Virus record (IMG/VR): IMGVR_UViG_3300013947_000019
Coordinates: 64,001-128,000 of that record
DNA from: a virus
Lineage: Duplodnaviria; Caudoviricetes
Reading direction: 5' to 3' (one strand)
Length of the DNA stretch: 64,000 nt
The notes under the pieces are model-generated. The model did no database searches. It was not told where the DNA came from and saw only the letters and a list, made by a program, of their open reading frames with translations. Position 1 is the first letter of the stretch. Every line of letters starts with the position of its first letter. Below, in pieces: positions 2,217 to 54,828 of the stretch. Position numbers and translations under genes: made by a program.

Positions 2217-2898
2217 TAAACTTCGTGGTAAACGAGATGAAGAAGGTTTCATTCAGCTGATTCCGAAGAGTGAAAATAAAACTGAAAAAGTTAAATCAGT
2301 AAAAAAGAGTGATGGGAACCCCTTTAAAATGGGGTCTTACAAATATCGATTGTTCAAATCTCTTCAAAAACACCGTACCCCAAAGTGGGTACTCGGGTTC
2401 CACCATGAAAAGGCAGAAAACGTCATTTTAGGGGTAGATAAGAAAGATAAACCTAAGACGATTATTACTTCTTATCCGGTTGGTAAGAAAGAGCTGAATG
2501 ATGCTGGAATTCAGAAGTCAGAAGGTCTTTCTGTATTGATTAATTGTGGTATGGGAACGTATCAAAAGATCCCATATTCAGTCTATAAGAAGTTCAAGAA
2601 AATCGAAAAGATGATCATTACAGTTAGATTAGAAACCTGGTCGGATGGAGATGATGAAGGAGAAGAAGTTTATGCCCATCAGTACTTCATTGATTCTATT
2701 GGAGAGCTGATGAGATTCTATCTATATCTGAGACATTTAGATGAGTATGTAAATGAACTTACTTCTTCTTTGTTATGGTATAATCGAATCAAGTTTAAGA
2801 TCGATACGATGGTAGATAAAGGAAAAGATAAACCAGAATATTTTAAAGGCAACTTTAATGAGTTTCTGGAAAAGTATGGATTTAAGGAGTTAATTTAA
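2194..2898 (+). CDS. hypothetical protein carrying N-terminal RDEEGFIQLIPK tag
   Basis: AAGGAGA RBS before ATG 2194 (MAGKKND...) within ORF 2110..2898. Confidence 0.75.
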   Translation: MAGKKNDNKLRGKRDEEGFIQLIPKSENKTEKVKSVKKSDGNPFKMGSYKYRLFKSLQKHRTPKWVLGFHHEKAENVILGVDKKDKPKTIITSYPVGKKELNDAGIQKSEGLSVLINCGMGTYQKIPYSVYKKFKKIEKMIITVRLETWSDGDDEGEEVYAHQYFIDSIGELMRFYLYLRHLDEYVNELTSSLLWYNRIKFKIDTMVDKGKDKPEYFKGNFNEFLEKYGFKELI

Positions 2899-2900
2899 AT

Positions 2901-3068
2901 ATGACAAAAGATAGACTTTTTGAGATCCTGGATGATCTCACCAATAAGATGGTGGAAGATACAGATGTAAATACAGTCATAACGATCTTAGTGGATCAAT
3001 GTGACTGTACATATGATGAGTTGGAAGAACTCGGTTTCAATGAAGATGATATCGATGATGTACTGTGA
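2901..3068 (+). CDS. small very acidic protein (55 aa, absent from the ORF track)
   Basis: AAGGAG RBS, ATG 2901, TGA 3066-3068; MTKDRLFEILDDLTNKMVEDTDVNTVITILVDQCDCTYDELEELGFNEDDIDDVL. Confidence 0.7.
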   Translation: MTKDRLFEILDDLTNKMVEDTDVNTVITILVDQCDCTYDELEELGFNEDDIDDVL

Positions 3069-3387
3069 TAATAAGAAAGTTGTTTCTACCAAAAATCCAG
3101 AACCGGATGAGTACGGATACTATAGAGCAACGGATATATCTACATTCTCTGATAAAGTTGAAGAGCTTATGAATGAAAGAGATGGTGTATCTACAATAGA
3201 TCATCCATATACAATGGATGATGTAAGAGCTGTAATCAGAATGCAATCTTATCAGAACTCTCCTAATGAGAGATGGAATGGTACTATGAAGTATCGCGGT
3301 CCAGATAAAATTGAATCTAATCATAAGGCTAAGAAGAAAAAGAAATTCAAATTAGTCAAGAAGTCAAAACAAAGAAATCGGAAGTAA
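3055..3387 (+). CDS. hypothetical protein with basic C-terminus
   Basis: ORF 3001..3387; likely start overlaps end of upstream small gene. Confidence 0.6.
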   Translation: MMYCDNKKVVSTKNPEPDEYGYYRATDISTFSDKVEELMNERDGVSTIDHPYTMDDVRAVIRMQSYQNSPNERWNGTMKYRGPDKIESNHKAKKKKKFKLVKKSKQRNRK

Positions 3388-3412
3388 ATAAGCTTCCGAT
3401 TTTGGCTCATCT

Positions 3413-3436
3413 TTCAAATATATATTATATAAGTGA
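3413..3436 (+). promoter_or_regulatory. putative early promoter
   Basis: TTCAAATATATATTATATAAGTGA. Confidence 0.65.
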
Positions 3437-3508
3437 TAGAGAGTTAGATGATATGCTGAGATCATAACTAACTCACAAATAATTTAAATTCAAAAGGAGA
3501 TATCTACA

Positions 3509-4141
3509 ATGAGCAGATCTGAGGCAAACAAGAAGAGAGCAAAGGCAATCGATACCAAGTATGAAACTACTGTCAAGGAACCCGAAACTGAAGTGAAGGA
3601 AGAGACCAAGAAGGAAAAGAAACCTTTCTTCAAGTTCAAGAGTACTCCTGCCGAGCGTATGACCAAGTTGGCAACGCTCAATGCACGCACCTATATCTTC
3701 CTGAAGGGTATGGGTATCGTGAACAAGAAGTTGAGCGCCAAGGTCAATGGCGAAGTTCAGCCGAATGGAAAGCCCTGGTTCAATGACAACAAGGTCACTG
3801 AAATCAAGGAAGAAGAGAAGGCCTCTCCGATCCTGAATACGGTTCCTACTACCACTGAGGTGGTCAAGAAGGATACCCAGAAGAAGGATCAGGATGAGAA
3901 GAAAGAAACCAAGAAGACAGAGACTACTCAGCAGGACTCTGTTAAGTCTAAGGAGCAGCCCGCCAAGGAAGAGAAGAAGGATAAGGAACCCAAGGTCGTT
4001 GAGGTGAAGGAAGATGAGATCGATTATCTCGTCGAACCTGAGACCGAGATGGAGAAGGTTCTGAAGCCCAAGAAGAATTACCGCAAGAATGGTAAGAAGG
4101 CCAGAAAGGCCGCAATGGAGGCTGCGAAGAAGTCTGCCTGA
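3509..4141 (+). CDS. highly charged low-complexity early protein
   Basis: 210-aa K/E-rich ORF, AAGGAG RBS, strong AAG/GAG codon bias. Confidence 0.8.
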   Translation: MSRSEANKKRAKAIDTKYETTVKEPETEVKEETKKEKKPFFKFKSTPAERMTKLATLNARTYIFLKGMGIVNKKLSAKVNGEVQPNGKPWFNDNKVTEIKEEEKASPILNTVPTTTEVVKKDTQKKDQDEKKETKKTETTQQDSVKSKEQPAKEEKKDKEPKVVEVKEDEIDYLVEPETEMEKVLKPKKNYRKNGKKARKAAMEAAKKSA

Positions 4142-4168
4142 TTGGGAGAGACAGGTAGACAAAAGAGT

Positions 4169-4193
4169 TGGGAGGGTCGCAATGACCCTCCCA
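4169..4193. terminator. bidirectional intrinsic terminator
   Basis: TGGGAGGGTC-GCAAT-GACCCTCCCA hairpin between convergent genes. Confidence 0.75.
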
Positions 4194-4214
4194 TTCTCTC
4201 TCATTATTTATTTT

Positions 4215-4447
4215 TTATTTATTAAGTTCCTTTTCAATTAGTGGTAAGTATTTATTTGCAAGCTGTCGTTTCTTTTCAATAACAATCTTGTTCATACCAC
4301 CAACTTTAATAATATCTAAGCACATACGCTTATAGATACCAATAGCTGATAGACAAGCGTCAATCTTATATACATGATCAGTATCTTTCGTGTATGGTGC
4401 AAGATCCGAAGGAATCACATTAGATACAATACCTTTTAATGCACTAA
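4215..4447 (-). CDS. rpoB: virion-type RNA polymerase beta subunit (N-part), exon 2
   Basis: After splicing reads ...GDKISY-F-SALKGIVSNVIP...APY...IDACLSAIGIYKRM, equivalent to beta GDK..NKGV..PY..DIVLNPLGVPSRM. Confidence 0.85.
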
Positions 4448-4573
4448 CTAATATCTTCAGATAGGGTCGCTAATCCTATCCCGCAGCATTACCTGCAGCT
4501 TACGGTTTTCCCGTAATGTAGAGACTATATTTTCAAGATATATCTTGTCTGGTCTTTCGGAATCGCTTGATTC

Positions 4574-5359
4574 CTAATGCTTATGAACTAAAATAATGAA
4601 ACCATTTTCATCTCTTGGTTCATATGCAATAGTCGTTGAACCTTTAACTTCTTCTAGTATAGGACGATATAGTTTTCCTTGGCGCATCTTTTTAATGACT
4701 TGTATTAATTTCTTCTCATCGTATTTTGGAAAATATTTAGCAATTTCCCGGGATGTGAAAACACCATATTGAATTAAACTTGCAATTGATAATAAGTCTT
4801 TTCGCTTATATGTTTTCATTCGAATTTCATCCACATCCCATTTATAATCCTTGCTTATATTATTCCATGTTTTTCTGTAAAATATTCTATCAAGAATACT
4901 ATCAATATTTTTAATATCATAAAGATCAAGTTTCTTTTCAATTTTTCGTATATTGTATCCCTGTTCAAATAACTCACATACTTTACGTACTTGATCATTT
5001 GTTAGTATTGAAAATTGATGATCTTCGCCAGTTCTATACAAATCATTAATAGATGCACGACATTTATTTTCATCACCAGTAACATACTCAAGATTATACA
5101 AAGCAGGGTTTAGTTTATTACAGTCTATATGATCCACTTCTAGATCAGAGTCATATGTAAAAGCTGCTAAAACTAAACGATGTAATGCATATTTTTTAAG
5201 TTTTCCAGATTTAGATACTAGAGTGACTCGAATATAACCTTTTTCATTTTTAGGATTACATCCATTTAATATTCGTCCATTTACAAGAGCAATTTTTCCT
5301 TCATCTGATATTAAATATCTTGTAGGATCAATGTCTCTATATACTAAGGGTATCCACAT
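4574..5359 (-). CDS. intron-encoded HNH homing endonuclease (NUMOD4-like N-terminus)
   Basis: W..RYLISDEG; HRLVLAAF..EVDHIDCNKLNPALYNLEYVT..N; AAGGAGG RBS. Confidence 0.9.
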   Translation of the reverse strand: MWIPLVYRDIDPTRYLISDEGKIALVNGRILNGCNPKNEKGYIRVTLVSKSGKLKKYALHRLVLAAFTYDSDLEVDHIDCNKLNPALYNLEYVTGDENKCRASINDLYRTGEDHQFSILTNDQVRKVCELFEQGYNIRKIEKKLDLYDIKNIDSILDRIFYRKTWNNISKDYKWDVDEIRMKTYKRKDLLSIASLIQYGVFTSREIAKYFPKYDEKKLIQVIKKMRQGKLYRPILEEVKGSTTIAYEPRDENGFIILVHKH

Positions 5360-5407
5360 GATTAAACTGCCTCCTTAAAATATTTAATCATATGTTATCC
5401 CCTTAGT
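5343..5407 (-). promoter_or_regulatory. hairpin sequestering HNH start codon, with embedded late promoter
   Basis: ACTAAGGG..ATGATTAAA / TTTAATCAT..CCCTTAGT; AACA-TATGAT-TA in the 5' arm. Confidence 0.55.
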
Positions 5408-5623
5408 TTATTAAAAGAAGTTACTTGGCTGCGGGTTAACCATATATCTCAATATTTTTTACGATACATCCAGACTCTCTCTGGATCCACTAACTATGTC
5501 ACCATGCTAGTTTCGTATATTGAGCTTTAGGTATCCAAGAATTAATTCTCAGATTGGTCTTATTTTAGCCCAGACCATTATTCCCGTCAATTAACCAGAT
5601 TACGTACCTAGGGCTTTATTTTC

Positions 5624-8600
5624 AGTACGAGATTTTGTCGCCCGGGGCAATAACGTCCTCATACTCAATATAGAAGTCGATCATTACGCCATCGGGTAGT
5701 TTAACACCCTTCACTTTGCCCTGTCCATCGGGTTCAAGTCTCTCAGCAGGTTTTGTAATCGTATTCGCATCATAGAGATTCTCATACTTTTCAATAACCT
5801 TTTCGCGCTTTCTATTTGCACTTGAGAAACCTTCAACAATCTTGCGAAGAGTGGGAGTCATTTCATTTGGATCAGCTGTATAATAAATACGAATATCTGC
5901 AATCTTTCCACTATACTTACTGACCACTGGTGCTGTTCCTGCAATCACTTCATCTTCATCTCCGGCTTCAGCAGCCATTGTCTGAAGCATCATAGAAGTG
6001 AATTCATCTTGTGTATCATCAAAGCTGATTAAAATGCTGTTTGTTGCAACATTATCACCAACTTTAACCATAGATTTAATATTAGCATACTTAGACAAGA
6101 TTACTCGTTTCTGCATAGTAATCTTGGTAGCCATTCTATGAGCCAGATCATCAGTGATATAACAAGAGTCTTCAAAAACACCACCATTGGTTTCTACTGC
6201 AATACGAGCCATAGTACCCATAGATGCCAAGTAATCACCAAACATATCGTTTGTATTGATATATTTAGGATCGTATGCTAATAATGTAGAGGCTTTAAAT
6301 TCAGAACCAATCTGCAGATCATTAGCAACGAACATCTGATTCATTACATAGAAACCACCATCCGTATTCTTTGCAGGTCTCTTAGAAAGATCAATATCAT
6401 CATATGTACCATCTACATATTGTACAATCATGATATCATCTTTAATATCAATAACCTTACCATCCTTCTTAGCACTACGTGCATAATCAGAGGAAAGATA
6501 AGGCATCAGACGTTCAGCATCATAAGAGACAGGGCAAGAACAACTGGATGCAACAGGGACCACATGCTTAGATTGAGATAGAGACATGGCAACACGCTCA
6601 ATATCAGCAGACTCAGGACCAAAAGCTTGCATTAACTCACCAGGAGTAGCAAGCTCGGTTGCTGTATAGTCTTCTTTATCGACAGTGATAAAACCACGTG
6701 CATCATCGATATTTGCATTGGTAGACATATGACGACCAATACCAACTTTACCAGAAGGAGTAGAGTTCATACCGACAACGCCCTTCATCGAAGGATGATA
6801 TGCACGTTTCTCAATCGTGAAAGAGTGCTCTTCATTCATACCAGAAGGACCCTTCAGTTTAATCAGTCGATCATTCTCCATCTCAAGTACAATATTTAAT
6901 TCAGAATGAGGGTCAACGATATCGGAAGTCAGTAAGTACTTGATAATAGCATTCTCGGGGATAGAGAACTTATCAGTCTTACCAAGTCGATATTTACCCC
7001 AAGCTTCAGCCAGTTCACAATATAACTGTGCCATAATGATTTCATTACTACGAATACGTGCATTATGATAATCAGAGTCAATCTGATAATGGTTATCAGC
7101 TAAGACACCATTACAATACAACATCAGTCGAGTGAAATCAGTTGGCATCTTCAGTCTGACCAGAACTTCCATTGTAATAGGATCAATGAAGCAGTAATAG
7201 AAGTTTCTCAGTGCATCAGCAAGAGTCTTACTATTAAACATGGAATCAAAGATTTGTACATATGCATCATATGTATCCATATCATAGAAGGAATAGTTCT
7301 TAGTCGGGAAAGTACTTAAACCATTCAGAAGCAACGAGTTTTCAAAAGGATATCGATCATAGATTAAATATCCATCATCAAACTGAACTAATCCCTGATT
7401 GTTAGGATCATAATCAGTAGGTTTCTTCTGTAAGAAATCAAACTTGATCTTAGCCTTCTGAAGAACTGCAGTTAAACCACCAGGATCAGCAGCAGCACAA
7501 ACAAGTACCAGAGGAACATCCATCTTCATAACTCGAGAACGAGAATAGATAAACTTAGAACTGCTGGAAAGAGAATCAAGTTCTTTCTTTAAACCAGAAT
7601 CATACCACCCAATTACCTCAGTAATGAATTCAGAGAGCTCACCATAATCATTACCCTTTTCATCATACACTTTATTAGTACGACCAGATAAGCAGAATTT
7701 AGTTCCTCCAGAAGCAGGACCCTTATTACCGGATCGTACTGCTAAAGGAATTAGAGATTCGGGATCTTCTTTATGCTTTGTATAAACAGGCTTAAACTCC
7801 TTCATATCGATGACCATATTAGCATCATCTACTATGAAGAAAATCTTCGTATGATCCTTACCTGTACCAATTGTAGCCTTCGTTACGGCTGTACCAATTT
7901 CATCATACTCCATAGTAGTCAGGTAATTCTTATTTGGAATCGTACAGTCACCTTTGGTTACAATAATACCAGGAGGACAACTGGGACCACCAAGAAGTTT
8001 CTTGATACGAGTAATACGAGGAGACAGATTAGAACCATATCGAGAAGAAATGATCTTCTTATAAGAAGTAACTGCCTGACAAGAATCTGGAGAGATCTTA
8101 GTAACAGGATAAGGAAGCTTCTGATGAGAGATATTCATCTTCTGATCATTCAGATAGAGATACCGATCCTCATACATCTTAGGAAGCAGGAATGAGAACT
8201 TATGTCTCTTACGAGTCTCATCTTCAAAAGAGACAGTATATCGAATCATACGATCAGTAGCCGTAGATACATCTTCTACTTCAATATCTTTATTAATATA
8301 CATAGCCGGATGCACATGGCTAAAATGCATCAGAATATTAACCAGATCATTCATCATTAAGTTTTCATTATATGCAGCTTCAAACTCTTGAGAACGAACA
8401 GTTTTCATATCATCATTGATTGTATGAATAGGAGGTTTTGTAACTGGAATAGCAGTCTTCTTTTCGGCTTCCAGAATTGTACGGAGAGGCACATTACCGA
8501 TATTAGTTTCTTTATACTTCTCCTTCATAATCTGGTCACGTTTATAAGAAGCTACCGTTTTACCAGTTGCTTTAGCTCCCAGGATTACATCGACATCTTC

Positions 8601-9779
8601 GGGATCTTCAATCACAACATCAGGCATTTCAAATTCACCCATGTCGACATCCATCTCGAATTCATCATCAATAATATCTTCACCAGAAGGTTCATCGATT
8701 TCTTCTACTTCTCTTTCTTCATCGAAATCATCAATCTTCTCTTTCTTTTGACCAAGTAAAGTTGGCTCTTCTTCAACCTTAGTCGGCTTTTCTGTCTTAG
8801 TGATATTTTTACGAACCACTTTCTTGACTTCAGCTTTCTTTTCAGGAGCCACAGTATCAGGATCCGTATTCATATCAGTTAAGATCTTTTCAGTAGCCAG
8901 ATCTTCCTTAGACTCCTCTTCGGCCTTCTTCATCTTTTGATCAATGATCTTATCGGCTTTGAGTTCTTCTGGAGTGGAAGTCTCCTTTGTTCTCTTAGCT
9001 CGCATCATAAACTCATGAAGAGTTTTAGTCATATCAAAATCTTCTGAAAGTTTGGTAGTATCAATAGGTAATACATATACACCATGTACGAAATATAGTT
9101 TATGAAATCTCGTATATACAGCAGGATCACATAATTGACGAGCCAATTGCTGACCAAACTGAGTAGCGTTTGGTCTAAAAATCAAATTGATATTATTATA
9201 GGAAGCTGTAGTAAAATACAGATCCATAGGAACAATCACATGACATTCATAATCGCCAAGATAGTTTTCCACACTACCAACCTGAGCAGATTTATAAACT
9301 CTCGTATATTCAGAGATAACCTCTCTTGTCTTAACAGACATCAACCTGGTATCTCTTGGATTATTCAGAATTGCTTGTGAAGCATAATTCGTTTCAACTA
9401 ATACATTGAAATTCTTCAGAGGTCTCATCTTAGCATTTGCTAAATAAGATGTGATACCATCGATATTCTTAAGGTTCTTCGTTTTATTATTATTGAGTAA
9501 TGCAGTTACAGACCCATCTTCATCCGGATGAATGATCTGAAGTCCAGCCCCTCTGAAATTATGACTCCACTTTTTATCAATAAAATATTTCCATAAGTTA
9601 CGGAAAAGAAGTGTTGGATTTTTATCCAACCATTTTAATTCATCTTCAATAGAAGGAGCAAGTACCATAAAGGCCATGTTCTTCTTTCGAGCTTTCGGGT
9701 TTTCGGGCATAATGACCGGTGGTCTGGTCTTATATGTGATGAAAGGCTCAAGTGCCTGGAGCTTAATCATCTTGATCAC
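5624..9779 (-). CDS. rpoB: virion-type RNA polymerase beta subunit (N-part; phiKZ gp178-like), exon 1
   Basis: Motifs STPSGKVGIGRH, DIERVAMSLSQSKHVVP, GGVFEDSCYI, PGDK; spliced length ~1460 aa; next to tape measure gene. Confidence 0.85.
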
Positions 9780-9867
9780 CGTTCCTTTCTATTTAAATTC
9801 TACATATTTACCAACGTGATAATAATAGAACCCATAATATAATAGGGTTAAGCGCTATGTCTGTATA

Positions 9868-9880
9868 TTATATCAGTGTT
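9868..9880 (-). promoter_or_regulatory. putative late promoter
   Basis: AACA-CTGATA-TAA upstream of vRNAP beta gene. Confidence 0.55.
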
Positions 9881-9921
9881 CAGATCATGAAAAGAGACTA
9901 TTTATTTTCTACACTTTTACA

Positions 9922-9934
9922 GACATTACAATAA
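9922..9934 (+). promoter_or_regulatory. putative late promoter
   Basis: GACA-TTACAA-TAA. Confidence 0.5.
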
Positions 9935-9964
9935 TTTATCATGCAGATAAAAGGAGTTTTTGAT

Positions 9965-10267
9965 ATGAGTGTCGATATTAAAGCGATGATTATGAAGAAG
10001 CAAAATGACAAGTTGAAGTCTTCAAAACTTGTTATGAAGGATATCAATCGAGAGTTGATTACAGCATTGATTGCATTACCGGTTTATGGTAAAGAAGTGC
10101 GTGATGAGGAGATTTTAACCATTATTATTAATGGCGGTATCGAACCTCCTCGTATGGATAAAATTCGTTCTGACTTCAGTAAGAGGTTGGATAAACAGGA
10201 AGTTAAGAAGGTCAAAGGTGAATATAGAGATAATGACGGCTTCCTGGTTCTCGTTCCCCGAGCATAA
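9965..10267 (+). CDS. small protein with C-terminal RDNDGFLVLVPRA tag
   Basis: AAGGAG RBS before ATG 9965. Confidence 0.75.
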   Translation: MSVDIKAMIMKKQNDKLKSSKLVMKDINRELITALIALPVYGKEVRDEEILTIIINGGIEPPRMDKIRSDFSKRLDKQEVKKVKGEYRDNDGFLVLVPRA

Positions 10268-10300
10268 TTAATATTATACTTTAGAAGGAGTGTGTACGTA

Positions 10301-10792
10301 ATGGCTAATAAGGTTGAGGCGAATGTCGCCAAGATGGTGGAGGAGCTGAAGAAGAATCCCTCTGCTCGTTTCAGTAAGTCCGACTTCCAGGCTCTGGTGT
10401 ATGCGGTCCTGGCTGATAAGGATTTCGATACCAAGAAGTATGTGATTAAGAATGATGAGATCATCGAGCAGCATACTTCTCTGAATGATGCTATGAAGAA
10501 GTTTATGGATAAGCTTCTGAAGCATGCGCAGATGTCTGATTCTGCTGAACGTGCTGCAGTGATCGACAGCTTTGAGTTTGGTCCTCGTGATGTTGAGTGG
10601 ATTACTGATGCTGTTGATGAGGCTATGTATCAGTACAGCGAATGCGGCAAGAATATGCGTATGTTCCGTGATAAGATGCTGCAGCTGTCTGTGAAGAAGA
10701 TGGTTCGCTCCGGCAAGTCTGCTGGTAAGATTACATATAAGAAGTCTGTTGTAGACAGAGCTGTTGCTCTGAAGAAGAGAACGGACAAGTAA
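10301..10792 (+). CDS. probably abundant small protein, possibly DNA-binding (HU-like?)
   Basis: AAGGAG RBS; strong codon bias; basic C-terminus; HU resemblance is weak. Confidence 0.7.
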   Translation: MANKVEANVAKMVEELKKNPSARFSKSDFQALVYAVLADKDFDTKKYVIKNDEIIEQHTSLNDAMKKFMDKLLKHAQMSDSAERAAVIDSFEFGPRDVEWITDAVDEAMYQYSECGKNMRMFRDKMLQLSVKKMVRSGKSAGKITYKKSVVDRAVALKKRTDK

Positions 10793-10882
10793 ATTTGCTA
10801 TTCAGGAAACCAAAATGGTTTGCGCTTCCCATTTTGGTGGATTTGTTGCTGTTCATATCGAACCCTCCGGTTAGAGAAGATT

Positions 10883-10902
10883 AGGTACCCTTCGGGGTAC
10901 CT
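10883..10902 (+). terminator. intrinsic terminator
   Basis: AGGTACCC-TTCG-GGGTACCT followed by T-rich tract. Confidence 0.75.
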
Positions 10903-10943
10903 TTTCTTCCCTCTCTTTTTCTCACACCTATTTAAATAGGGTC

Positions 10944-10956
10944 AACATCCATATAA
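10944..10956 (+). promoter_or_regulatory. putative late promoter
   Basis: AACA-TCCATA-TAA upstream of tape measure gene. Confidence 0.6.
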
Positions 10957-10983
10957 TCTAACACCCGGAAAGGCGGTGAGAAA

Positions 10984-13900
10984 ATGGCTAAAGTGGATAG
11001 AAGTACTCGTGAAATTAATCAGCGAGTAAAACGTGCAGTGGGCAATACTTCTAAGAGAGCTAGCAATGCTGGCAAAATGTTTTTACATGTAGGAGGAGAG
11101 TTCTTAAAGACGAACTTTCCTACCCCTTTTGCTTTTGTGGAAACCAATAAAGATGTATTGGACTCTACTGCAAAATTCTTACGTAATCCTGTAGATAATG
11201 TAAACAGACAGATCAACCGGGCGTTAGCTACTGATGATTTCAAAGCCTTATCTAAACTGGCTAAGAATACATTAGCAGACCTCAAGAGCGGTAACTATTA
11301 TGATCCTGAGAGGCATCGTGATGCTGCATCGGAACAGATGGATGCTGCTATGGCTGAACTTGATAATTTTGATTTCGATTTCGGCGGCTTTGATCTTAGC
11401 GATTTCGATGAGAATGGTGACTGGGTAGATAGTTCTGATGATGCTGCTAAGGCTGATGTAAATACACAGCTTAAAGTTGCATATCTACAAAATGCAAAAG
11501 ATGATGCACGTACAACAGCAACTGTCAATGCAATTGTAGGTGGAACTCAAGCTCAGATTCAGAATGATAATGCCAATGCTCAGGTTAATATTCGTATGAT
11601 GCTCAAGCAACACTCTGAAATGATGCAAACTCAAGAGAGTTTGATTCAGGGTCAGCAAGCTACATTCGAATTAATTTCTAAATCTTCTGAAGCTCATGCC
11701 AATCTCTTCCGAGAAGCTCATAATCAGGTAATGGGTAAATTTGATACTACAATCGAATTACTTAAGAAGATTGAAGTTAATACCCAGAAGCCTGTTAAGA
11801 CTGAGAAGAAGAGAAAAGAAACTGAAGATATCTTTGGTACTAATGGTGAGCTGAATCTGAAAGCTTATGCAAAAGCTGTCAAGAAGAATATCAGTGATAA
11901 GATGTTCAGTCTACCGATTGGTGTCGGTGGTGTTATGGGCTTACCATTTAGTCAGATTATTGAAACTTTTGGTGATAACCCGATTGACAGCCTACTGCAG
12001 TTAGCTCTTAGTGCAGCTATTCCAAAGGGTACGAGATATCAGATGGAACGTACCAATAAGAATATGCAAGGATTCTTACCTGCTCTTATGCAGAAGATGA
12101 CTGAACGTGGTCGTCTCTATGAAACTGGTAAGAGTAATAAGAAATTTGATATGCTTATGGGTCTTCTTGCTCCAAGTCAGGAATCCAAGACCGGTATCAG
12201 TACCAGAAATAGTGATTATCTGAAGGCTGCACAGATTACCAATAAGACGGTACGAGCTATTGAGGAAGTCATCCCTATGTGGCTTTCTCGTATTGACTCA
12301 CATCTTACTGGCGGTCCAATGATGGTTTATGACTATGAACGTGGACAGTTAGTAAATGCTGGTAAAGTTATTGCTGAGAATGAACGTTATAATCGTAATA
12401 TCGCCAAGAATATTGATGGGTATTATGAAGTAGCCAGCAGAGCTAAGAATTATAAGTTTAAGAATGAAGGAGATCAGAAAGCTTTCTTAGACTTTGTATA
12501 TAGATTCTTCCAGAATGCTGGTGAAAATGATAAGTTCATCAATCCTTGGGGAGATATGAAGAATCTGATGAGGGATATGGATGTCCCTGAAGGGTCCAAT
12601 TATGATAATATGCTTATGGCTATTCTTCGTAACTTGAATCCTGATCAGAGTAAAGTAAAGGGTGCCAATAAAGCTGCTATTCTTCAAATGAATAGTAGTA
12701 TTGCTAATGCTCGCAGAAGACGTAATGATACGAACTTTAGAGTAAATCGAGATCTTGCTGAAAGTGGGCTAATTGGTGCTTGGTCCTTTATGGATGAGAC
12801 CAGTAGAAATGCTATCATTGGTAAAGCTATGAGTCAACATGATGAGCTTTCTGATGAAGATATTGAGAAGATCAGTGAACAAAGAAGAAAAGCTCTGTTA
12901 AAGAATGGTGGAGTTAACGCCTCCAATGTTCTTCTTGCTGATATTCTGAAAACACTTCGTTCTGGTATTATTACTTATAGCACTTCACTAAAGGGTTCAC
13001 CTGAATCTATTCCGGATTATGTGAAGGAAAAGATTAAGGTTAAGAGATCTCGTACAATTACTCCTGGTACAGTTGGTGGACGTGCAACTTCTATCAATGA
13101 TCCTGCAACACAGGCTGTTGATGAACTATACGCGAATACGATGTCTCTGGAAGAGCTTATGACTCAGCAGGGAAATCTGTCATATGATAAAGATGAGGAT
13201 GCGCGTCAGAGAGAAATTGAACGTCTTCGCAAGGAAGGTAAGGATCCTACAAACCGTTATAATGATACTCTCCGAGATAAGAGTAAGTATTATAAGAAAG
13301 CTTTCGAAGAATCCAATTTTGGTAAGCTTGTCGCTACGGTCAAAGCAACTGCAGAGAATCCTTTTAAGTTAGTTAATAGTGCTCTTCAGATGGTAGATGA
13401 CATGATGTACAAAACTCTGTTCGGTACAGATGCTCTTAAGGATGGAGAAGAAGATGGTCCTATCGATCCTAAAGATTCTCCTTCCATTCTGAAGACTACT
13501 ATGAATATCATTGCTAAACAATTCAATCAACTCTCTGGATTTGTCAATAGTACATTTAAGAGGATTGATGATTATCTGTTTGCTCCTGAACATGGCCTGT
13601 TTTCTAAAGCTATGAAATCTCTTGGCGAAATGCTTGGATTTGGTGAGCTGAAAGATAAGGCTATGGACAAGGCTAAGAATGTTCGTGACAAGATCAAGAA
13701 CAAAGTTGTTGGTACCAAGGGTGAAGATGGTAAGTATTCCGGAGGTTGGGCTTCTAATCTTGTAAATAACTACAAGGAAGGTAAAGATGATCTGGAAGGT
13801 ACCATTAAGGGTGCTATCAACAAGATGCTCTATGGTGACTATGCTGCCAGTAAGGGTAAGTTTGAAGGCTTTGTTGTTGATGAACAAGGTAATGCTACTC

Positions 13901-24218: not shown

Positions 24219-24576
24219 TAAGTATATGCAGACCAGTATTATCAATGAGATTATGAAGCAGTATAACATGCGGACGATTGCTGAAGAGCTTTGTAATCAG
24301 TTGAAGAAATCTGGTTCTGTTTCTGTATATGAAGTAAATGAGGATGGTTTTGTTCTTCGTCGTAATACGGATGGAATCATTAGTCCAGATACCATTATTG
24401 ATGGGTTAGTAAAAACTTTCCGTTCTATTGTCTCTGACGATGATGAACTCCAGGAGATTATTCAAGATACATATGATTTTGAATATGATAAGAAGTCTAT
24501 TAACGATGAACTTCTGTCTGAAGATGTTAACGTAAAATTATCTGGAAGATTAATTTCTATTGAAATTGATTTTTAA
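24205..24576 (+). CDS. hypothetical protein
   Basis: ORF 24175..24576, likely ATG 24205. Confidence 0.65.
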   Translation: MKKSDKYMQTSIINEIMKQYNMRTIAEELCNQLKKSGSVSVYEVNEDGFVLRRNTDGIISPDTIIDGLVKTFRSIVSDDDELQEIIQDTYDFEYDKKSINDELLSEDVNVKLSGRLISIEIDF

Positions 24577-37332: not shown

Positions 37333-37334
37333 TC

Positions 37335-41208: not shown

Positions 41209-41213
41209 TTCTT

Positions 41214-42440: not shown

Positions 42441-42448
42441 TCCTTTAC

Positions 42449-43654: not shown

Positions 43655-43753
43655 ATAATAAGATATTCCTCCTTTCTAAACAGTGTCTATATAGTGTTGT
43701 CGACAAAAATGGAGAAAAAGAAAAGCCCAGGGAAACCCCTGGGCGATTCCTAT

Positions 43754-44032: not shown

Positions 44033-44055
44033 ATTTATTCTCTCCCTTCAGATAT

Positions 44056-44654: not shown

Positions 44655-44721
44655 CTTTATACCTCTCCTTCTTTAGGTTTAATTAAAGAAAGGGAGAGGT
44701 ATAAGTCCTCTCCCAATCTTT

Positions 44722-45195
44722 TTACTTCTTGTCTTTCTTGTTCTTCTTTTTCTCCAGTTCATCAACAGGTGCACAGTTTTGATCAATCCAATCAAGATAT
44801 TTTGATACACTGTCCTTAGGAAGATTGAAGATCTTACGGATCCTATCAACCGTATCCTCAAAACCAGTAAAATCTTTCTCATTGAATAGATCACTACGAT
44901 CCTTGATTATTTTCTGGTAAGCTTTGATAAATCTATCGATTGTCTTCTCCTTATAGTTTGCACCATCGATGCCAAGGATGGTTTCAGGAGAAGTCTCTGC
45001 TTCAGGATTAGAAAGATATTGTGCATATATCTTATCAATTTCCCAAGCAGCAGATACTAATGCCGAATACTCACGCTTAAAGCTCATATTCGAATTAAAC
45101 TTACCATTGGCTCTATCAATGAAAGTATAGGTTGGGCACATTGTCATGAACATAGGATGGAACGCTGGATCATTAACCGCCATAAAACTAAGTTG
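44722..45195 (-). CDS. rpoC: RNA polymerase beta' subunit N-part, exon 2
   Basis: Splicing gives ADFDGD-QLSFMAV, equivalent to NADFDGDQMAVHV. Confidence 0.85.
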   Translation of the reverse strand, partial: QLSFMAVNDPAFHPMFMTMCPTYTFIDRANGKFNSNMSFKREYSALVSAAWEIDKIYAQYLSNPEAETSPETILGIDGANYKEKTIDRFIKAYQKIIKDRSDLFNEKDFTGFEDTVDRIRKIFNLPKDSVSKYLDWIDQNCAPVDELEKKKNKKDKK

Positions 45196-45623
45196 CAAAA
45201 TCTTAACCTCTATACCATAACATAGAGTAACTCATCAGAGTTCTCTGGGAATTTACCCAGATGTTGAGACTATATCTCCACCCACTTATTTCAGTTGGGG
45301 TGCTGGCCGCTTCGAAACTCATGGATTTCGAGTTTCTACTCTACTCACTTCGTGTATATTTCTATACCTTATTTTCAACCCTGCTAATTTATATTAGCTC
45401 TTATGGATTTATAGCTTTCGATAGTCGTTGAACCTTCCTTAAGAAAATTAAGGCTTGGCTGCTAAGATTATACATTGTTAATGAATACTTAGGATTTAAC
45501 CATATATTCATCCTATCACTTGTTTCTACTTTCGTAACCATATAGGCTGATAGGCATTAGCATTTCCCAGCAATTCAACCAGTTTATACACGCACATTCC
45601 TGTACGCTGAGACCATATTGTTA
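45196..45623 (-). mobile_element. ORF-less group I intron directly after the catalytic DFDGD motif
   Basis: P1 GAGAT/GTCTC with U.G; R element GGTTCAACGACTAT (~45421-45434); S element AGATATAGTCTC (~45266-45277); terminal G 45196; 428 nt. Confidence 0.9.
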
Positions 45624-46889
45624 ATCTCCATCAAAGTCTGCAGCCAATAAAGGTAGAATATCAGGTGGCAGATGCATCGTCATATCATATCCATCATCAT
45701 GAATCTTTCTGACTCGTACGTACAAGATAGAAGATTCACTAATAGTAGGATTTCGATTGATCAGTGCCCAGACACCATGTCCATCCTTTAAAATTTGATT
45801 AATGATCTTGGCAAATTTCTCATTTCGTTGAACAGCATTCTCTTGCACAAGAGAGATTGCTTTAGAAATGGGAATATTATCTAACATCGATAACCGCTTT
45901 GCGATCTTTTCCTCATACAGAACCATCATGGTTTGATAAGGAATATCAACTTCATGAGGCATCAGATCTGTGCCAAGAGAGATAACCATTCGAGAGGTAT
46001 AATCGATTCGACCAGATGCCAAACTTTTGCGATATACGCCACCCTTACCATTCACCTGTTCTTCAACAAAGGCAGTAATATCATTCCAGTCTTTCTGGAT
46101 CTGGTTCAAAGTACGCTGTACCTCAGTGATACGTTTCTTGGCAAAGATTGGTCCAGTAATCAACGCATTGCGATTATTAACGATAGACAGATACTTTTTA
46201 TTCACATCCAGAATTGTCATATTCATACCAAACGTCATCAGCGGACGAAGTCTGGCAGAATAGACAGGAATCTTAGACATGAATGCATACTTCTTTGGTA
46301 ATCCAGTCAGAGGTTCATATTTCTCCTCATATTCCTCATATACTGTTTCGATAGTAGGCTTACCATCATCGATAATTTTACCAGAAGTATTGATACGTTT
46401 CACAGAGTTGACAAGATCATTCATCACATCCTTCTTCAGGACACGATACAATGCATTCCATCCGTGATACGTAAGAATATGATAAGGAGCAATGTCAATA
46501 TAACCAGTAGTCCGAAGATCTCCATCGGTCACAGCGACAACCTTCTTACCGCACACTGGGCAGATCTCACCAAGATGAGCACCACCCACAAGAGATTGAC
46601 ACTCACAAGAATAATACGGACGATCCTGTGTAGTATCAGAACCAAATCGAGAGGAAAAGATACCATCGATCGGTTTCTGTGTACCATTTACAAAAATCTC
46701 CGGATTAGAGATATCAATCTGCTGTCCACGTTTTCTCTGTTTCTCGTACTCAGCATCATGATCCACCATAACAAGTCGTACTGCATTGATTCTCTTCTTT
46801 GTTTTATATTCAAACAAAGGAGAAGGCTTGAATGTAGTAAACTTATCACGGTTCACGATATTGAGTCTTCCAGGAGTAGACTTAGCCAT
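45624..46889 (-). CDS. rpoC: non-virion RNA polymerase beta' subunit N-part (phiKZ gp55-56.1 / AR9 gp270-like), exon 1
   Basis: Zn finger CEC..CPVC, GRIDYTSRMVI, INRNPT, ADFDGD; spliced length 579 aa. Confidence 0.9.
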
Positions 46890-46901
46890 ATCCTATCCTC
46901 C

Positions 46902-47444
46902 TTAGTGTTCAATAACTGTAATAGGAAATACTCCAGGTACATCCATGTTCAGTTCCTTTGCAGATTTTACCTTCATGAACTCCAGGTATCTCTTCTGTGC
47001 TTCAGGAGTCAGGTCTTCGTAGTAAATTTCAAAGATCTCAGAATCTTCTTTAGGAATTTCAATATCAGAGATCTTCATAAGAACAATTTCAGTCTCATAG
47101 GGAGGATGCTCTCCAACTCGGACTTCCTGGAACTCATACTCTTCTCCATCACCAAAGTTAATGGAGTCATGAATATCGATACAATGCCCTGCAACCGTTG
47201 CAAGCTTGTTGGTGATCTCACGACCAAGAGGATTCGTTCTAACAAGAACATGTCCCCAGTAATTTACCACGGGTTCCATTCTCTCCAAATCATACGGGTT
47301 ACCATAACCATCCTCACGGATATAGAATACAGTATATCCGATAGGGGCAGTTCGGATACGATCTCCCGCGCAGATCAGACATTCCATACCAAGGATAGAC
47401 CCCTTGGTATATTTGCACTTCTTAAAATCTACATGCTCGCTCAT
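46902..47444 (-). CDS. hypothetical protein
   Basis: AAGGAGG RBS before ATG 47444. Confidence 0.7.
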   Translation of the reverse strand: MSEHVDFKKCKYTKGSILGMECLICAGDRIRTAPIGYTVFYIREDGYGNPYDLERMEPVVNYWGHVLVRTNPLGREITNKLATVAGHCIDIHDSINFGDGEEYEFQEVRVGEHPPYETEIVLMKISDIEIPKEDSEIFEIYYEDLTPEAQKRYLEFMKVKSAKELNMDVPGVFPITVIEH

Positions 47445-47460
47445 TTGTAATATCCTCCTT

Positions 47461-47763
47461 TCAAATCTCCACCTCACTGATTTTTGCAAACCAGTGATTA
47501 TACAGGTCAGGATCTTTTCGATTCTCGACAATACAGAATGCAGTATTATGATCGAAATACGTAGATCCCATACCCGTTAAAACAGACGTACTGGAAATTG
47601 CGCCAGTTTTATGCGCAGATTTAATTTTTTCTCTATTTTCAGGACCGAGTTTTGATGCAAGTTTTTGCACCATGTATTCTTTTGCTGCAATGTGATTGTC
47701 GAAAACAATCGGATCAAAGATCCTATCTCTAATAGCCTCCATGTAAATATATTTCTTACCCAT
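47461..47763 (-). CDS. hypothetical protein
   Basis: 100 aa, AAGGAGG RBS, directly after early promoter. Confidence 0.7.
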   Translation of the reverse strand: MGKKYIYMEAIRDRIFDPIVFDNHIAAKEYMVQKLASKLGPENREKIKSAHKTGAISSTSVLTGMGSTYFDHNTAFCIVENRKDPDLYNHWFAKISEVEI

Positions 47764-47785
47764 ATAAATAACCTCCTTTAATATA

Positions 47786-47810
47786 CTACATGTATAGTAT
47801 ATATCTGAAA
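47786..47810 (-). promoter_or_regulatory. putative early promoter
   Basis: TTTCAGATATATACTATACATGTAG. Confidence 0.65.
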
Positions 47811-47815
47811 TTGAG

Positions 47816-47840
47816 TTCCCCGGCAGTGGTAGCCGGGGAA
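47816..47840 (-). terminator. terminator hairpin
   Basis: TTCCCCGGC..GCCGGGGAA after sbcC. Confidence 0.65.
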
Positions 47841-47853
47841 TCTCTTTTTCATT

Positions 47854-50625: not shown

Positions 50626-50690
50626 ATACTCACCTCATAGAGATGTCGTGTGATATGGTAAAAAAGAAAGGGCCCGAAGGCCCCATCTTT

Positions 50691-51356
50691 TTACACAAGA
50701 GTCGGTACAGACTTATTCGTAAACAAGTCTGCAGCTCTTTCAGAGAGGTGTGTAAGGTTCTTCATATTCAGTTCCTCACGCACCTGCTTCAGTTTATTAT
50801 CTTTAGCAACTTCCCAGTTGTGAGAACCCTCAGCCTTCATAACAGTTTTCTGCTCATCAGCCAGAGCGATCATAGCTTCCCGATAATCAGCAAATGCTTT
50901 ATTAAAGTTATCAGATGCAACACCATCCAACTTGTCGATCATCTCTTCAACCAGATTACGAATCTTATTAATATCAGGTTCATCCATAACAGAGAGCATT
51001 GCATTCAACCGATATGGATCCATATCCTTCATAGTAGTCAGATCCATCACAGGAAGATTTGTACGAATAAAGTCCAGAATCAACTGTGCCTCTTCAGGCT
51101 TACTCATACAGAGTTCATATACAAGAGAAAGGAGCATGACAGAATTGTTCATGCTCATCTTTTCATTCACTTTGGCAGTCTGCATACGAGCTGTATTACG
51201 TGCAGTCAGCTTATGAAGCTTATATACACGATTCATCAGATTACCAAGACCAATCATAGTGGTCACAGTAATCAGTACTGCACAAATCACTACGATCAGA
51301 ACTACCAGATAATTATCAGAGATAAAACTCTGCAAAGTTCTCCACATGTCATTCAT
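50691..51356 (-). CDS. hypothetical protein with N-terminal membrane anchor
   Basis: YLVVLIVVICAVLITVTTMIGL hydrophobic helix. Confidence 0.65.
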   Translation of the reverse strand: MNDMWRTLQSFISDNYLVVLIVVICAVLITVTTMIGLGNLMNRVYKLHKLTARNTARMQTAKVNEKMSMNNSVMLLSLVYELCMSKPEEAQLILDFIRTNLPVMDLTTMKDMDPYRLNAMLSVMDEPDINKIRNLVEEMIDKLDGVASDNFNKAFADYREAMIALADEQKTVMKAEGSHNWEVAKDNKLKQVREELNMKNLTHLSERAADLFTNKSVPTLV

Positions 51357-52185
51357 CGTTCATATCCTCCTCATTATTGTTAGAGTTTTTATTAGTTTCG
51401 AGAATCGCTTCATTGATCATATCTTCTGCATCAATCAATTTGTCAGGATCAATATCATAAGGTTCACCATTTGGATAGATAACCAACATTGATCCATCTT
51501 CAAACATCGGATTAGATACACCAGGTTTATCACGAATAATAAGAGCCATTTCCATTTCCCATGTGTCTGTACAAGCCATAGCTCGAGAAGGACTCATAGC
51601 CTTATTAATAAGAATACCACGTTTGATGTTATTCATCATATTGGTACCCTCAATACCACTTGCTTTATTCATTGCAAGAGCTTTCAATCTCTTACCATAA
51701 GGAGCAAATGGAGCATCCTTCAAACGAATTCCCATCTTGACAAGTTTATTCAAGAAATCATCATTCGTTCGCAGAGGAGGCATAAAGCTATCACCTTTAG
51801 ATACATCAACAGTCAGCTCTTTGAACTCATCTGGTTCAATATCATTTCCGATAATTGCGGAGACCATGTTCTTTACTTTATCGGGCTTATAATGCTGCGC
51901 TTCATCCCGACGAGGATAGATCATCTTTACATGCCACCTGTTATATTCATCACGCTTCAGATAAATACCAGGTTTACGATGACCCCATGGTTCTCCTTTC
52001 TTAATCACGCCTCGATATGGAAAGATACCTTTTGTCATATCGGTATTGATTCGATATGCCATATTTAACCGGAATAGATCCGGCCCATCCTCTTCAATAT
52101 CTACCAAGTCAGGCATATCTGCTACAGTATACATTGTAGAGTCAATAAAGATGGCATCAAAATCAAGTTTTGATTTGCTGCTCAT
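51349..52185 (-). CDS. hypothetical protein
   Basis: 278-aa ORF, AAGGAG RBS, overlapping operon arrangement. Confidence 0.7.
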   Translation of the reverse strand: MSSKSKLDFDAIFIDSTMYTVADMPDLVDIEEDGPDLFRLNMAYRINTDMTKGIFPYRGVIKKGEPWGHRKPGIYLKRDEYNRWHVKMIYPRRDEAQHYKPDKVKNMVSAIIGNDIEPDEFKELTVDVSKGDSFMPPLRTNDDFLNKLVKMGIRLKDAPFAPYGKRLKALAMNKASGIEGTNMMNNIKRGILINKAMSPSRAMACTDTWEMEMALIIRDKPGVSNPMFEDGSMLVIYPNGEPYDIDPDKLIDAEDMINEAILETNKNSNNNEEDMNDE

Positions 52186-52955
52186 ATAATTACTCCTTGA
52201 TTATTCATTGGTAAGTTATTCCATTGAAACTGTTGTGTTACTGGAGGTTGTTGATTGATTTCATTCTGCTGACTAGTAAACTTATTGATATCTTTCCCAG
52301 TTAATATAGTTAAGAAGTTACGGATATCTCTGATATCTTCACTCACTCGATCAAGTTTATTGTTGATATCGAAATTTTGTTCAACGATATTCAATAATAA
52401 ACTATACACTTGAATGTCCAAATGATGAATGATCTCACAAAATTCCCGTACTTCTTTATGGGTCATACTACCAACAAATATTCCTTTATGCACAATTGTA
52501 ACACCAAATGATTCTGTAGAACCAAAAGCAAATACTGCAGGACTAACCACGATATCACCACTATAGAGTTTCATTTTACGACTGCACTCTTTAGCTACAT
52601 TTTTGTCCATCATGATATATCCATTTGGATCCTTTGTAAATAGCTTTGGGTTCGATAGTTCTTTATAAACTTTCTCTAGTAGATTTATAAAGATATATAT
52701 ACTATCGATTGGTATTGGAAGGAATCCACGTTCCTTCTTTTCTCGGTTATACTGTGGATATGTCATCCCTTTATGAATAACCATACTTGGAATCACTGAT
52801 ATCTTTGGTGCATAGATTAGAACTTTGGCATTTTCTCCAGGAGGAGCCCATTGTCTAAATATATCTAACTCTTCTTTATTTGTATTTGTTTTTGGCGATA
52901 CGACAACAGACCATTCCAGATCAAACCCCTGAAACACCGATGACTTCAGTCTCAT
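52182..52955 (-). CDS. hypothetical protein
   Basis: 257-aa ORF, Q/N-rich tail. Confidence 0.65.
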   Translation of the reverse strand: MRLKSSVFQGFDLEWSVVVSPKTNTNKEELDIFRQWAPPGENAKVLIYAPKISVIPSMVIHKGMTYPQYNREKKERGFLPIPIDSIYIFINLLEKVYKELSNPKLFTKDPNGYIMMDKNVAKECSRKMKLYSGDIVVSPAVFAFGSTESFGVTIVHKGIFVGSMTHKEVREFCEIIHHLDIQVYSLLLNIVEQNFDINNKLDRVSEDIRDIRNFLTILTGKDINKFTSQQNEINQQPPVTQQFQWNNLPMNNQGVII

Positions 52956-53193
52956 CTTCTGTATCCTCTACTTCCTCATCCAACTCTTCTGTTTCTTCAA
53001 CATTATCTGTTACTTCATCATCAACAGCTTCAGGAATAGTTGGAACAGGAGTAAATTCACTCTTATAAATCATACGGATGATATTATCATCTACTTTACC
53101 GATCATACGAATAAAGGTAGTGATTACCAATGCCCATACGACCAGGAATACGATACCTACAACAATGCAGGTAATAATTGTTGATGTGTTCAT
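52921..53193 (-). CDS. small membrane protein with acidic tail
   Basis: N-terminal TM helix, E/D-rich C-terminus, GGAGG RBS after early promoter. Confidence 0.7.
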   Translation of the reverse strand: MNTSTIITCIVVGIVFLVVWALVITTFIRMIGKVDDNIIRMIYKSEFTPVPTIPEAVDDEVTDNVEETEELDEEVEDTEDETEVIGVSGV

Positions 53194-53215
53194 TTGTATA
53201 ATTCCTCCTTATTAG

Positions 53216-53239
53216 TTTCACTTATATAGTATATATCTC
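53216..53239 (-). promoter_or_regulatory. putative early promoter
   Basis: GAGATATATACTATATAAGTGAAA. Confidence 0.7.
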
Positions 53240-54828
53240 TAATCAACGAAGAATAATTTACCTGTTTTGCTTCTATTGATTAGTTCAGCTTTACGCTTAT
53301 CAAACTGCCTCATGGTTTTCATATAACCAGTATTTAATAGTTCGATATATACTACTTGTGATCCATCTTTGAGTTCACGAAGACGACCAGAGATTTGTCT
53401 TGCTGTCAACCAATTACTATATGTACTACAGTAAATGAGCACTTGCAAATTTGGTATATTTGCACCAGTACCAAGACTACTATCCGTAGCAACAATGATA
53501 CGTTTCTCCAGTGCAGCTTCTTTATCAGCTTTCTTCATTCCTCCATAATACACTGATGTTTCTCCAGGAAATACTTCTTCAGCGAGTTTCTGAATATAAT
53601 AAAGAGTATCAATCGACTGAGCCATAAGCATTAGTCGTTTATCTTTACCCATAATCCCTTTAGCCCACTTTAAAAGTACCATAATAGCATCATTATAACT
53701 TTGCCTTTGCCATTCAGGAGAGTTGATCAATTCGCGCTCATACGACTTAGTATTTAATCCAGTCTTATTATTAACCATAGCTCTGATCTGTTGAGGAGTA
53801 GGAGTCCATCGGAACTTCTTAATCATTATTGTAATATGTCTCTCTTCTTTGGTATTAAAGTCTCCACCAAAATGAGGAACATTCTTAAATAATGTTTTAA
53901 AGATCCAGTTCTCTTTCTGCTCTGCTCGACCAGGACTAGCTGACATATAGTAATTGGTATGAAAATTACTGAGTGCTTCGATCATAGATACGGCTCGAAT
54001 ATCACGATGAATTTCATCTATGATTTTGATATATGCACCAGTAGCTCTGAGCATCTCAATTGTTTGAATATTGCCATATCGTTTCTGATAACTTGCAATA
54101 GTATCAGTACTACAGATAAAGACTTGAATATCTTTACATTTTCCTTCTAAGATTTTATTGCAAGCATCAGAACCTTGGATGATCATAATATCATCTTTAT
54201 TAAGTGAAGTAAAGCTTGTAAAAGCATCTAACCATTCACCTAATAGTTTACTAAATGGAACAAAGACAATAACTTTCTTTTTCCAATAAGCTGTTGTAGC
54301 TACACCACAATACGTTTTCCCGAAACCTGTGGGGATATCAATTAGTTGCTGGGACTGTTTAATTGTTGCATACATGCCTTGCCGAGTCATAAACGTTAAT
54401 GCAACCTTTTGAATATCACTCCGAGGAGGAGCATATAATTCAATAGTAGATTCCTGACCAACAAAGGCATCATTCATAACTCGCATTGGATGATTAGGAA
54501 AGAAATTTTTAAGGCGATATAGATCATATCCACGATTGATACGAAACTCTTTATATTCAGGAACATAATACCCTCCGATAAGTTCATATCGGAAGGTCAT
54601 CTTATTCCAAATACTCAGAGATTTTTCGAACTCTCTATTATCGCCCATCTTATAGTCACAAATACTAATGTGGCCATGATGCAAAACAATTTCTTTTGTT
54701 CCTGTATGAATAAATCGATTTTGAATATCGACAGTTTTTCCTATGGGATGTTTGGGTATCAGTCGGATAAACCCATCCTCATCCCGGGGCATGTCTTTGA
54801 GTCTGGGATATGACTCCTGATAATCCAT
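53239..54828 (-). CDS. SF2 (DExH) helicase, UvsW / phiKZ gp75-like, with N-terminal RDEDGFIRLIPK tag
   Basis: PTGFGKT, IIDEIH, MSASP, LGTGANIP, QISGRLR. Confidence 0.9.
   Translation of the reverse strand: MDYQESYPRLKDMPRDEDGFIRLIPKHPIGKTVDIQNRFIHTGTKEIVLHHGHISICDYKMGDNREFEKSLSIWNKMTFRYELIGGYYVPEYKEFRINRGYDLYRLKNFFPNHPMRVMNDAFVGQESTIELYAPPRSDIQKVALTFMTRQGMYATIKQSQQLIDIPTGFGKTYCGVATTAYWKKKVIVFVPFSKLLGEWLDAFTSFTSLNKDDIMIIQGSDACNKILEGKCKDIQVFICSTDTIASYQKRYGNIQTIEMLRATGAYIKIIDEIHRDIRAVSMIEALSNFHTNYYMSASPGRAEQKENWIFKTLFKNVPHFGGDFNTKEERHITIMIKKFRWTPTPQQIRAMVNNKTGLNTKSYERELINSPEWQRQSYNDAIMVLLKWAKGIMGKDKRLMLMAQSIDTLYYIQKLAEEVFPGETSVYYGGMKKADKEAALEKRIIVATDSSLGTGANIPNLQVLIYCSTYSNWLTARQISGRLRELKDGSQVVYIELLNTGYMKTMRQFDKRKAELINRSKTGKLFFVD

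Follow-up and report, generated by a model that had tools for sequence, protein, structure and literature searches.

To our knowledge, sliding clamps are alone among protein classes in recruiting many unrelated DNA enzymes by means of a short peptide. The clamp of bacteriophage T4, gp45, has as its clients the tails of the gp43 polymerase, of RNase H and of the late-transcription proteins gp33 and gp55, together with a ligase peptide; the polymerase tail is the classic clamp client, whilst the gp33 and gp55 tails are those through which the clamp activates late transcription. PCNA, with the PCNA-interacting peptide (PIP) box and the AlkB homologue 2 PCNA-interacting motif (APIM), and the beta-clamp, with QL[SD]LF, are similar in that one hub and one short motif, often terminal, serve dozens of unrelated DNA enzymes; such motifs are also adopted by proteins of mobile elements, an example being Tn3-family transposases with the beta-clamp (PMC11417375). 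A different arrangement is found in the chimalliviruses, in which, according to two preprints of October 2026 (PMC13648687; doi 10.64898/2026.10.01.755736), an RNase H and a clamp-derived domain are fused in Rhc (phiKZ gp155, Goslar gp190), a protein that binds the split polymerase, boosts it and lends support to late transcription. Here we describe a 12-residue peptide tag found at the ends of many unrelated proteins of an uncultured jumbo phage of the gut, which is most likely a docking handle for one shared partner. It was noticed in a window of 64,000 nucleotides, corresponding to bases 64001-128000 of one 259,863-bp viral contig with a G+C content of 36.9%; positions given without a contig or locus name are those of this window.

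The tag has the consensus [RY]-D-x-[DEN]-G-F-[ILM]-x-L-x-[PKR]-[KR]. Direct translation recovers the four 12-mers from which the first-pass annotation of the window had proposed it, at 2233-2268 (+), 54751-54786 (-), 10226-10264 (+) and 4577-4615 (-), each at the residues reported for it. A regular-expression scan of the six-frame translation revealed one more strict copy, the fifth, along with about ten that nearly match, elsewhere in the genome. When a position matrix built from the copies was run against the whole genome and ten shuffled proteomes, there were 21-22 matches of at least 15 bits in the former and none in the latter; the matrix was trained on 18 of its own matches, and four further matches of more than 20 bits lay outside the training set. 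After correction of gene starts, the 259,863-bp genome has 22 strong copies on 19 proteins. Twenty of these copies are no more than 50 residues from a protein end, whereas 7.9 would be expected at random (simulated p < 1e-5), and both the excess over shuffled sequence and the terminal bias suspected from the first few examples are therefore evident across the proteome. The codons at the conserved positions include five for arginine, all four for glycine and all six for leucine; as synonymous codons vary between copies, selection acts on the peptide, in agreement with the earlier reading, and a DNA repeat or mobile cassette can be ruled out. Weaker variants were recognised by eye alone, N-terminally in topoisomerase II, a Dda-like helicase and two RNA polymerase pieces, and C-terminally in an RNase H.

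All of the carriers that could be assigned to a family act on nucleic acids. The tag stands at the N-terminus of a superfamily 2 (SF2) helicase and of a NAD-dependent ligase (LigA), and at the C-terminus of a DnaB-like helicase, a PC4-like single-strand-binding protein, a Bro-N/ANT protein and four HNH endonucleases, one of which has helix-turn-helix (HTH) motifs. A reverse transcriptase of the type found in diversity-generating retroelements (DGRs) has two copies, its partner Avd has one at the C-terminus, and the beta-N subunit of the non-virion RNA polymerase has three within a tail of 125 residues. Seven carriers have no family, and the only match of a tagged 282-aa protein is to a PHROG of unknown function; used as an annotation aid, the tag would mark the seven as probably DNA- or RNA-associated. 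Amongst 45 proteins with a family label, strong copies are present in 12 of the 33 that act on nucleic acids and in none of the 12 others (Fisher p = 0.012), the latter class consisting of virion structural proteins, dCMP deaminase, NrdD, a dNMP kinase and thymidylate synthase-like, SHMT/methyltransferase-like and GroEL-like proteins. Virion-structural PHROG proteins account for six of the proteins scanned, and none is tagged. Every copy lies outside the Pfam domains, and the carriers have no Pfam domain in common, as would be anticipated from the original description of them as proteins without visible homology to one another.

The helicase tag lies within a 45-residue N-terminal extension, and the orthologues in AR9 and Staphylococcus phage PALS_2 are without it, a comparison that the first-pass annotation had proposed for homologues from other clades. 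In beta-N, the match to PDB chain 7S00_c stops at residue 503 of 630, with the tagged tail beyond. The tag, either full or shortened, opens almost every one of 120 helicase orthologues (43-97% identity); in the distant ones it is reduced to two hydrophobic residues-x-L-x-P-K directly after the start codon. The beta-N orthologues among the matches listed (54-97% identity) all keep three copies at the same place. The motif is thus retained by orthologues down to the lower limit of both ranges. Furthermore, a 230,855-bp relative, in which the clamp-fold protein described below is only 39% identical, has 13 D-G-F-x-x-L copies at orthologous protein ends. In several lineages, G-Y replaces G-F in all three beta-N copies; in two contigs with this change a neighbouring unrelated protein also has G-Y, one of the two contigs having Y for F at the ligase N-terminus as well. 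An F-to-Y change shared by separate proteins would follow from their having one common reader, because such a reader would constrain all of the copies.

Other features of these two proteins were also observed. The beta-N tail (L011:4010-5899, -) has a conserved N-P-W-x-Y-G-L-Y element followed by L-x-L-x-P-K at around residues 545-580, between the first and second tags, and this whole element is kept by all of the orthologues P0292-P0411. In a close relative (L013:3001-5022; 97% identical), the gene for the helicase is interrupted by an intein within the Walker A motif (G-x-G-K / T), and many helicase orthologues are 650-890 aa long, some having intein and homing-endonuclease Pfam domains; the copy in the window is intein-free.

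The phage is an uncultured AR9-like jumbo phage, since three of its proteins match solved chains of the AR9 non-virion RNA polymerase, namely the promoter subunit, beta-N and a piece of beta-prime. The beta-prime piece (55663-57819) matches chain 7S00_D from residue 197 onward. The promoter-specificity subunit is a 606-aa protein (57918-59738, -) homologous to AR9 gp226 (profile E 2.6e-67 to 7S01_A), with about 130 additional N-terminal residues and a model of predicted local distance difference test (pLDDT) score 86. The gp226-type subunit of AR9 reads uracil-containing template-strand promoters, and therefore the DNA of the present phage may also be unusual. Relatives of the SF2 helicase at 25-28% identity are found in the Bacillus phages AR9 and PBS1, in Staphylococcus jumbo phages and in phiKZ-like phages. 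Orthologues from metagenomes are carried by many contigs, 220-260 kb in size, of which GenBank labels two as Muribaculaceae and Ruminococcus genomes, and a nucleotide search of one window gene against cultured phages gave no match. The contig is complete according to CheckV and has around 290 predicted genes, most without known function. A tubulin-family gene (PF00091) is split across both contig ends, outside the window (G000:C1:25-372 and 259659-259859, -), and hence the record is circularly permuted; this is an instance of tubulin in an AR9-like phage in which chimallin was not detected.

A candidate for the shared partner is encoded at genome positions 141273-142007 (L005:13273-14004:+), directly after the 721-aa exonuclease piece of the DNA polymerase (PHROG 'DNA polymerase'). 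Pfam and PHROG scans of this 244-aa protein were empty. Its structural model, produced with 17 aligned homologues, has a pLDDT of 91.8 and a predicted template modelling (pTM) score of 0.87, and the best 50 PDB matches to it are all sliding clamps (PCNA, 9-1-1, T4 gp45 and beta), with Z scores of 10.3-11.8 over about 200 residues and full-length alignments to PCNA and 9-1-1; the gp45 structures matched include one with the ligase peptide. The order of secondary structure elements gives two similar beta-alpha-beta-beta-beta domains in clamp topology. Matches in a viral structure library were to uncharacterised Myoviridae proteins, T4-type sliding clamps, viral PCNAs and a 508-aa 'ribonuclease H', and an Atlas feature search returned a weak PCNA_N lead at rank 30. 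As modelled, the protein folds as a PCNA-type clamp, and invariant lysine and arginine residues in and just after its first two predicted helices would suit a DNA-facing surface. At the level of sequence, searches of the genome with PF02767, PF00705 and PF09116 (beta, PCNA and gp45, respectively) found no match, including at the 244-aa gene; nor did tblastn find one for the protein amongst cultured phages, and alignment by hhalign to the 238-aa Goe21 protein downstream of a polymerase piece had a probability near 0. A complex prediction with three copies of the clamp-fold protein and the 45-residue helicase N-terminus, both with alignments, returned no answer (score 0.01, mark 0.32, without controls), and speaks neither for nor against binding.

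We propose that the tag would be a short linear docking peptide, presented on flexible terminal extensions of about 20 unrelated proteins that act on DNA or RNA, and that one common partner, the 244-aa PCNA-fold protein, would read every copy and thereby bring the enzymes to replicating and transcribed phage DNA. The result would be a phage-private sliding-clamp 'toolbelt', comparable to that formed by T4 gp45 with the tails of the polymerase, ligase and late-transcription proteins. We infer both the binding and the single reader, and place the identification of the clamp-fold protein as that reader a little short of an even chance. It is favoured because the classic clamp clients (ligase, helicases, nucleases and, with its tag-like end, RNase H) are tagged, as is the late RNA polymerase, and because a separate, tag-ended RNase H parallels Rhc. 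The suggestion in the first-pass annotation that the motif binds a common phage hub accordingly has in its favour the position of the copies, their restriction to nucleic-acid proteins, their conservation, their concerted change and a candidate with a clamp fold, whilst the reader itself is deduced.

The RNase H in question (L004:2281-2910, -, outside the window) is a stand-alone protein of 210 aa that weakly resembles the RNase H domain of Rhc (E 0.002). The present phage and those encoding Rhc belong to the same supergroup, characterised by a split PolB and two multisubunit RNA polymerases. However, the association in Rhc is a covalent fusion, with no shared client peptide described, whereas here the clamp-fold protein stands alone and the RNase H is a protein of its own. 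The pairing seen in Rhc, if made non-covalently, would look like this, with contact between tag and clamp taking the place of the covalent link.

As in T4 and RB69, a phage-encoded protein of PCNA fold adjoins replication genes, and would be the docking site for short hydrophobic peptides at the flexible termini of proteins for replication, repair and late transcription. Unlike gp45, the candidate has no sequence similarity to the PF09116 family; the motif is different from that of T4 and far more uniform, and there are more types of client, including the DGR reverse transcriptase and Avd, HNH, Bro/ANT, DnaB-like and PC4-like proteins. The tag also differs from the PIP box, APIM and QL[SD]LF in having an acidic start, then G-F, an aliphatic residue, any residue, L, and finally P or a basic residue, although we take this aromatic-aliphatic-basic pattern to be loosely reminiscent of APIM. 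Several observations weigh against docking on a clamp. None of the 22 copies fits the consensus of a known clamp motif (PIP box Q-x-x-[LIM]-x-x-[FY]-[FY], or QL[SD]LF), the alignment having neither a conserved Q nor paired aromatic residues. No clamp loader was found in the genome with the AAA+ models PF13177 and PF00004, and the ends of the three PolB pieces (721, 335 and 291 aa) have no clear tag, both of these being further departures from T4. Strong copies are also absent from three HNH nucleases, SbcC, an exonuclease and several RNA polymerase pieces, whilst the DnaB-like helicase and the PC4-like, Avd, Bro/ANT and HTH proteins are unusual as clamp clients. Alignment of the 244-aa protein to phiKZ Rhc by hhalign had a probability near 0, and the clamp-derived domain of Rhc works as a monomer, without forming a ring (PMC13648687).

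Nothing in the evidence for a common reader tells which protein this is, and the tag could instead be a docking peptide for an abundant phage DNA-binding or scaffold protein, for another component of the replisome, or for a host protein such as the host beta-clamp. Most of the phage genes have no known function, and the atypical clients (PC4-like, DnaB-like and Avd proteins and transcription factors) and untagged polymerase pieces would be less surprising were the reader of this kind; yet none of the alternatives is placed as well as the clamp-fold protein, and a reader supplied by the host makes the lineage-specific changes in the tag hard to explain. We consider a reader other than the clamp-fold protein possible, if somewhat doubtful. 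Much less room can be given to the tag as a handling signal, such as a degron, or a tag recognised by a chaperone or unfoldase, which would set the time at which early and middle proteins are removed or folded. A terminal, exposed peptide with a hydrophobic core and charged flanks would be suitable for this purpose, and the phage encodes a GroEL-like protein. However, a degron leaves unexplained both the restriction to nucleic-acid proteins and the three copies kept by all orthologues of the late-acting non-virion RNA polymerase subunit, and no phage protease or unfoldase was identified, making this explanation very improbable.

The first-pass annotation had also raised the possibility of a signal for import into the virion or a replication compartment. 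Packaging into the virion is ruled out, since the triple-tagged carrier, as the orthologue of AR9 beta-N, belongs to the non-virion RNA polymerase. An address resembling a nuclear localisation signal, which would govern entry to or retention in a phage-built replication compartment not made of chimallin, has more to commend it: the carriers amount to everything that must reach the phage DNA, including the selfish four HNH nucleases, the DGR reverse transcriptase with Avd and the Bro/ANT protein, and the phage encodes tubulin and is a distant relative of those that form a nucleus. The import system of the chimalliviruses (PicA/Imp1) similarly selects phage proteins that handle DNA and RNA, an intron homing endonuclease amongst them. 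However, what that system recognises is reported to be folded surface patches rather than terminal signals, and AR9 has been placed outside the nucleus-forming family (2026 review, PMC13282480). Neither a single-sequence search of the genome with phiKZ gp54 nor profile-profile comparison of the one syntenic candidate found chimallin, and in a search of all open reading frames (ORFs) with a six-sequence profile the best E value, 0.047, was not significant. Synteny had pointed to the 606-aa gene upstream of an RNA polymerase gene as a possible chimallin; it has no profile similarity to that family, and encodes instead the gp226-like polymerase subunit. The tandem copies of the tag would be at least equally well suited to avidity on a multivalent hub. 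An address signal of this type consequently seems unlikely to us. Similarly small is the likelihood we attach to the tag being an access code, without which no protein in this clade, including one encoded by a newly arrived selfish gene such as a homing endonuclease, a DGR or an antirepressor, could work on the phage genome. According to the same improbable scheme, the code would be read by a gatekeeper bound to the DNA or else at the edge of a replication compartment that lacks chimallin. If true, this would give bacterial viruses their first linear localisation signal.

A hub that is read via a shared linear motif is a well-known kind of system. The novelty lies in the motif itself, in the clamp-fold protein that had escaped annotation and in the range of the clients, which extend to the non-virion RNA polymerase, the DGR reverse transcriptase and Avd, homing endonucleases and antirepressor-like proteins; searches of the full-text literature yielded no account of a phage-wide tag or localisation signal of this kind. 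We know of no recognised sliding clamp in AR9-type phages. If one reader does serve about 20 clients, this clade would have a compact natural toolbelt, in which replication, repair, late transcription, the DGR and homing endonucleases are linked via one 12-residue handle. This would explain how the replisome is organised in AR9-type phages, would tie in with the clamp-derived Rhc subunit of nucleus-forming phages, and would require foreign genes to gain the tag in order to function in the phage. The tag and its reader would also offer a transferable peptide-receptor pair with which proteins could be recruited to DNA.

Two of the tagged genes in the window are adjacent. The ORF at 1506-2216 (+), encoding 236 aa with no Pfam or PHROG family, has a copy at 2133-2174 (+; 30.7 bits in the matrix) with the core DIDGFINL, 13 residues before the C-terminus; this sequence, at 2142-2165, had been listed as a weaker variant and scores as a true copy. 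The ORF at 2194-2898 (+), encoding 234 aa and likewise of no family, has a copy at 2227-2268 (+; residues 12-25; 38.0 bits). The genes overlap by 23 nt, and their tags are on facing ends, at a C-terminus and an N-terminus respectively, about 70 nt apart. They are separate genes, since the second has its own ribosome-binding site and an orthologue, likewise N-terminally tagged, in the relative with the 39%-identical clamp-fold protein.

Two further copies in the window are at the extreme C-terminus of their proteins. One, at 4580-4621 (-; 34.6 bits), belongs to an HNH endonuclease of 261 aa (4574-5359, -; Pfam PF13392), in which the HNH_3 domain occupies residues 57-98, distant from the tag. 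The gene had been labelled as that of an intron nuclease, which Rfam does not support, as no intron family reached the gathering score in positions 1-12000 of the window. The other, at 10220-10261 (+; 34.0 bits), ends a 108-aa protein of no family (9941-10267, +), the orthologue of which in the relative G001 has an identical type of tagged end. Another copy in the window, scoring 40.8 bits, is at 54751-54792 (-), covering residues 13-26 of the 529-aa SF2 helicase (53239-54828, -; ResIII/DEAD in Pfam).

Possible degenerate tags were seen by eye on two polymerase proteins: one with the core LIPKK (57724-57750, -), below the matrix threshold, is in the N-terminal extension of the beta-prime piece, and another, RDKF-T-F-KP (46821-46850, -), is at the N-terminus of a protein encoded at 45621-46889 that matches a PHROG RNA polymerase subunit. 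The sequence NEDGFVL at 24337-24357 (+), also put forward at first as a variant, is internal (residues 55-61 of 133) and scores only 10.2 bits, and is not counted as a tag.

Outside the window, a 642-aa protein (L005:1567-3492, -) matches phage GroEL-like chaperonins over part of its length (PHROG 5725, residues 25-287). Near the end of the window, at 60800-63425 (-), is an SHMT-like or methyltransferase-like gene (Pfam SHMT; PHROG methyltransferase, E 5e-135), which adjoins a gene encoding a CYTH domain, whilst dCMP deaminase and thymidylate synthase-like genes lie elsewhere in the genome. Together, these three genes may indicate the presence of modified nucleotides in the phage DNA.

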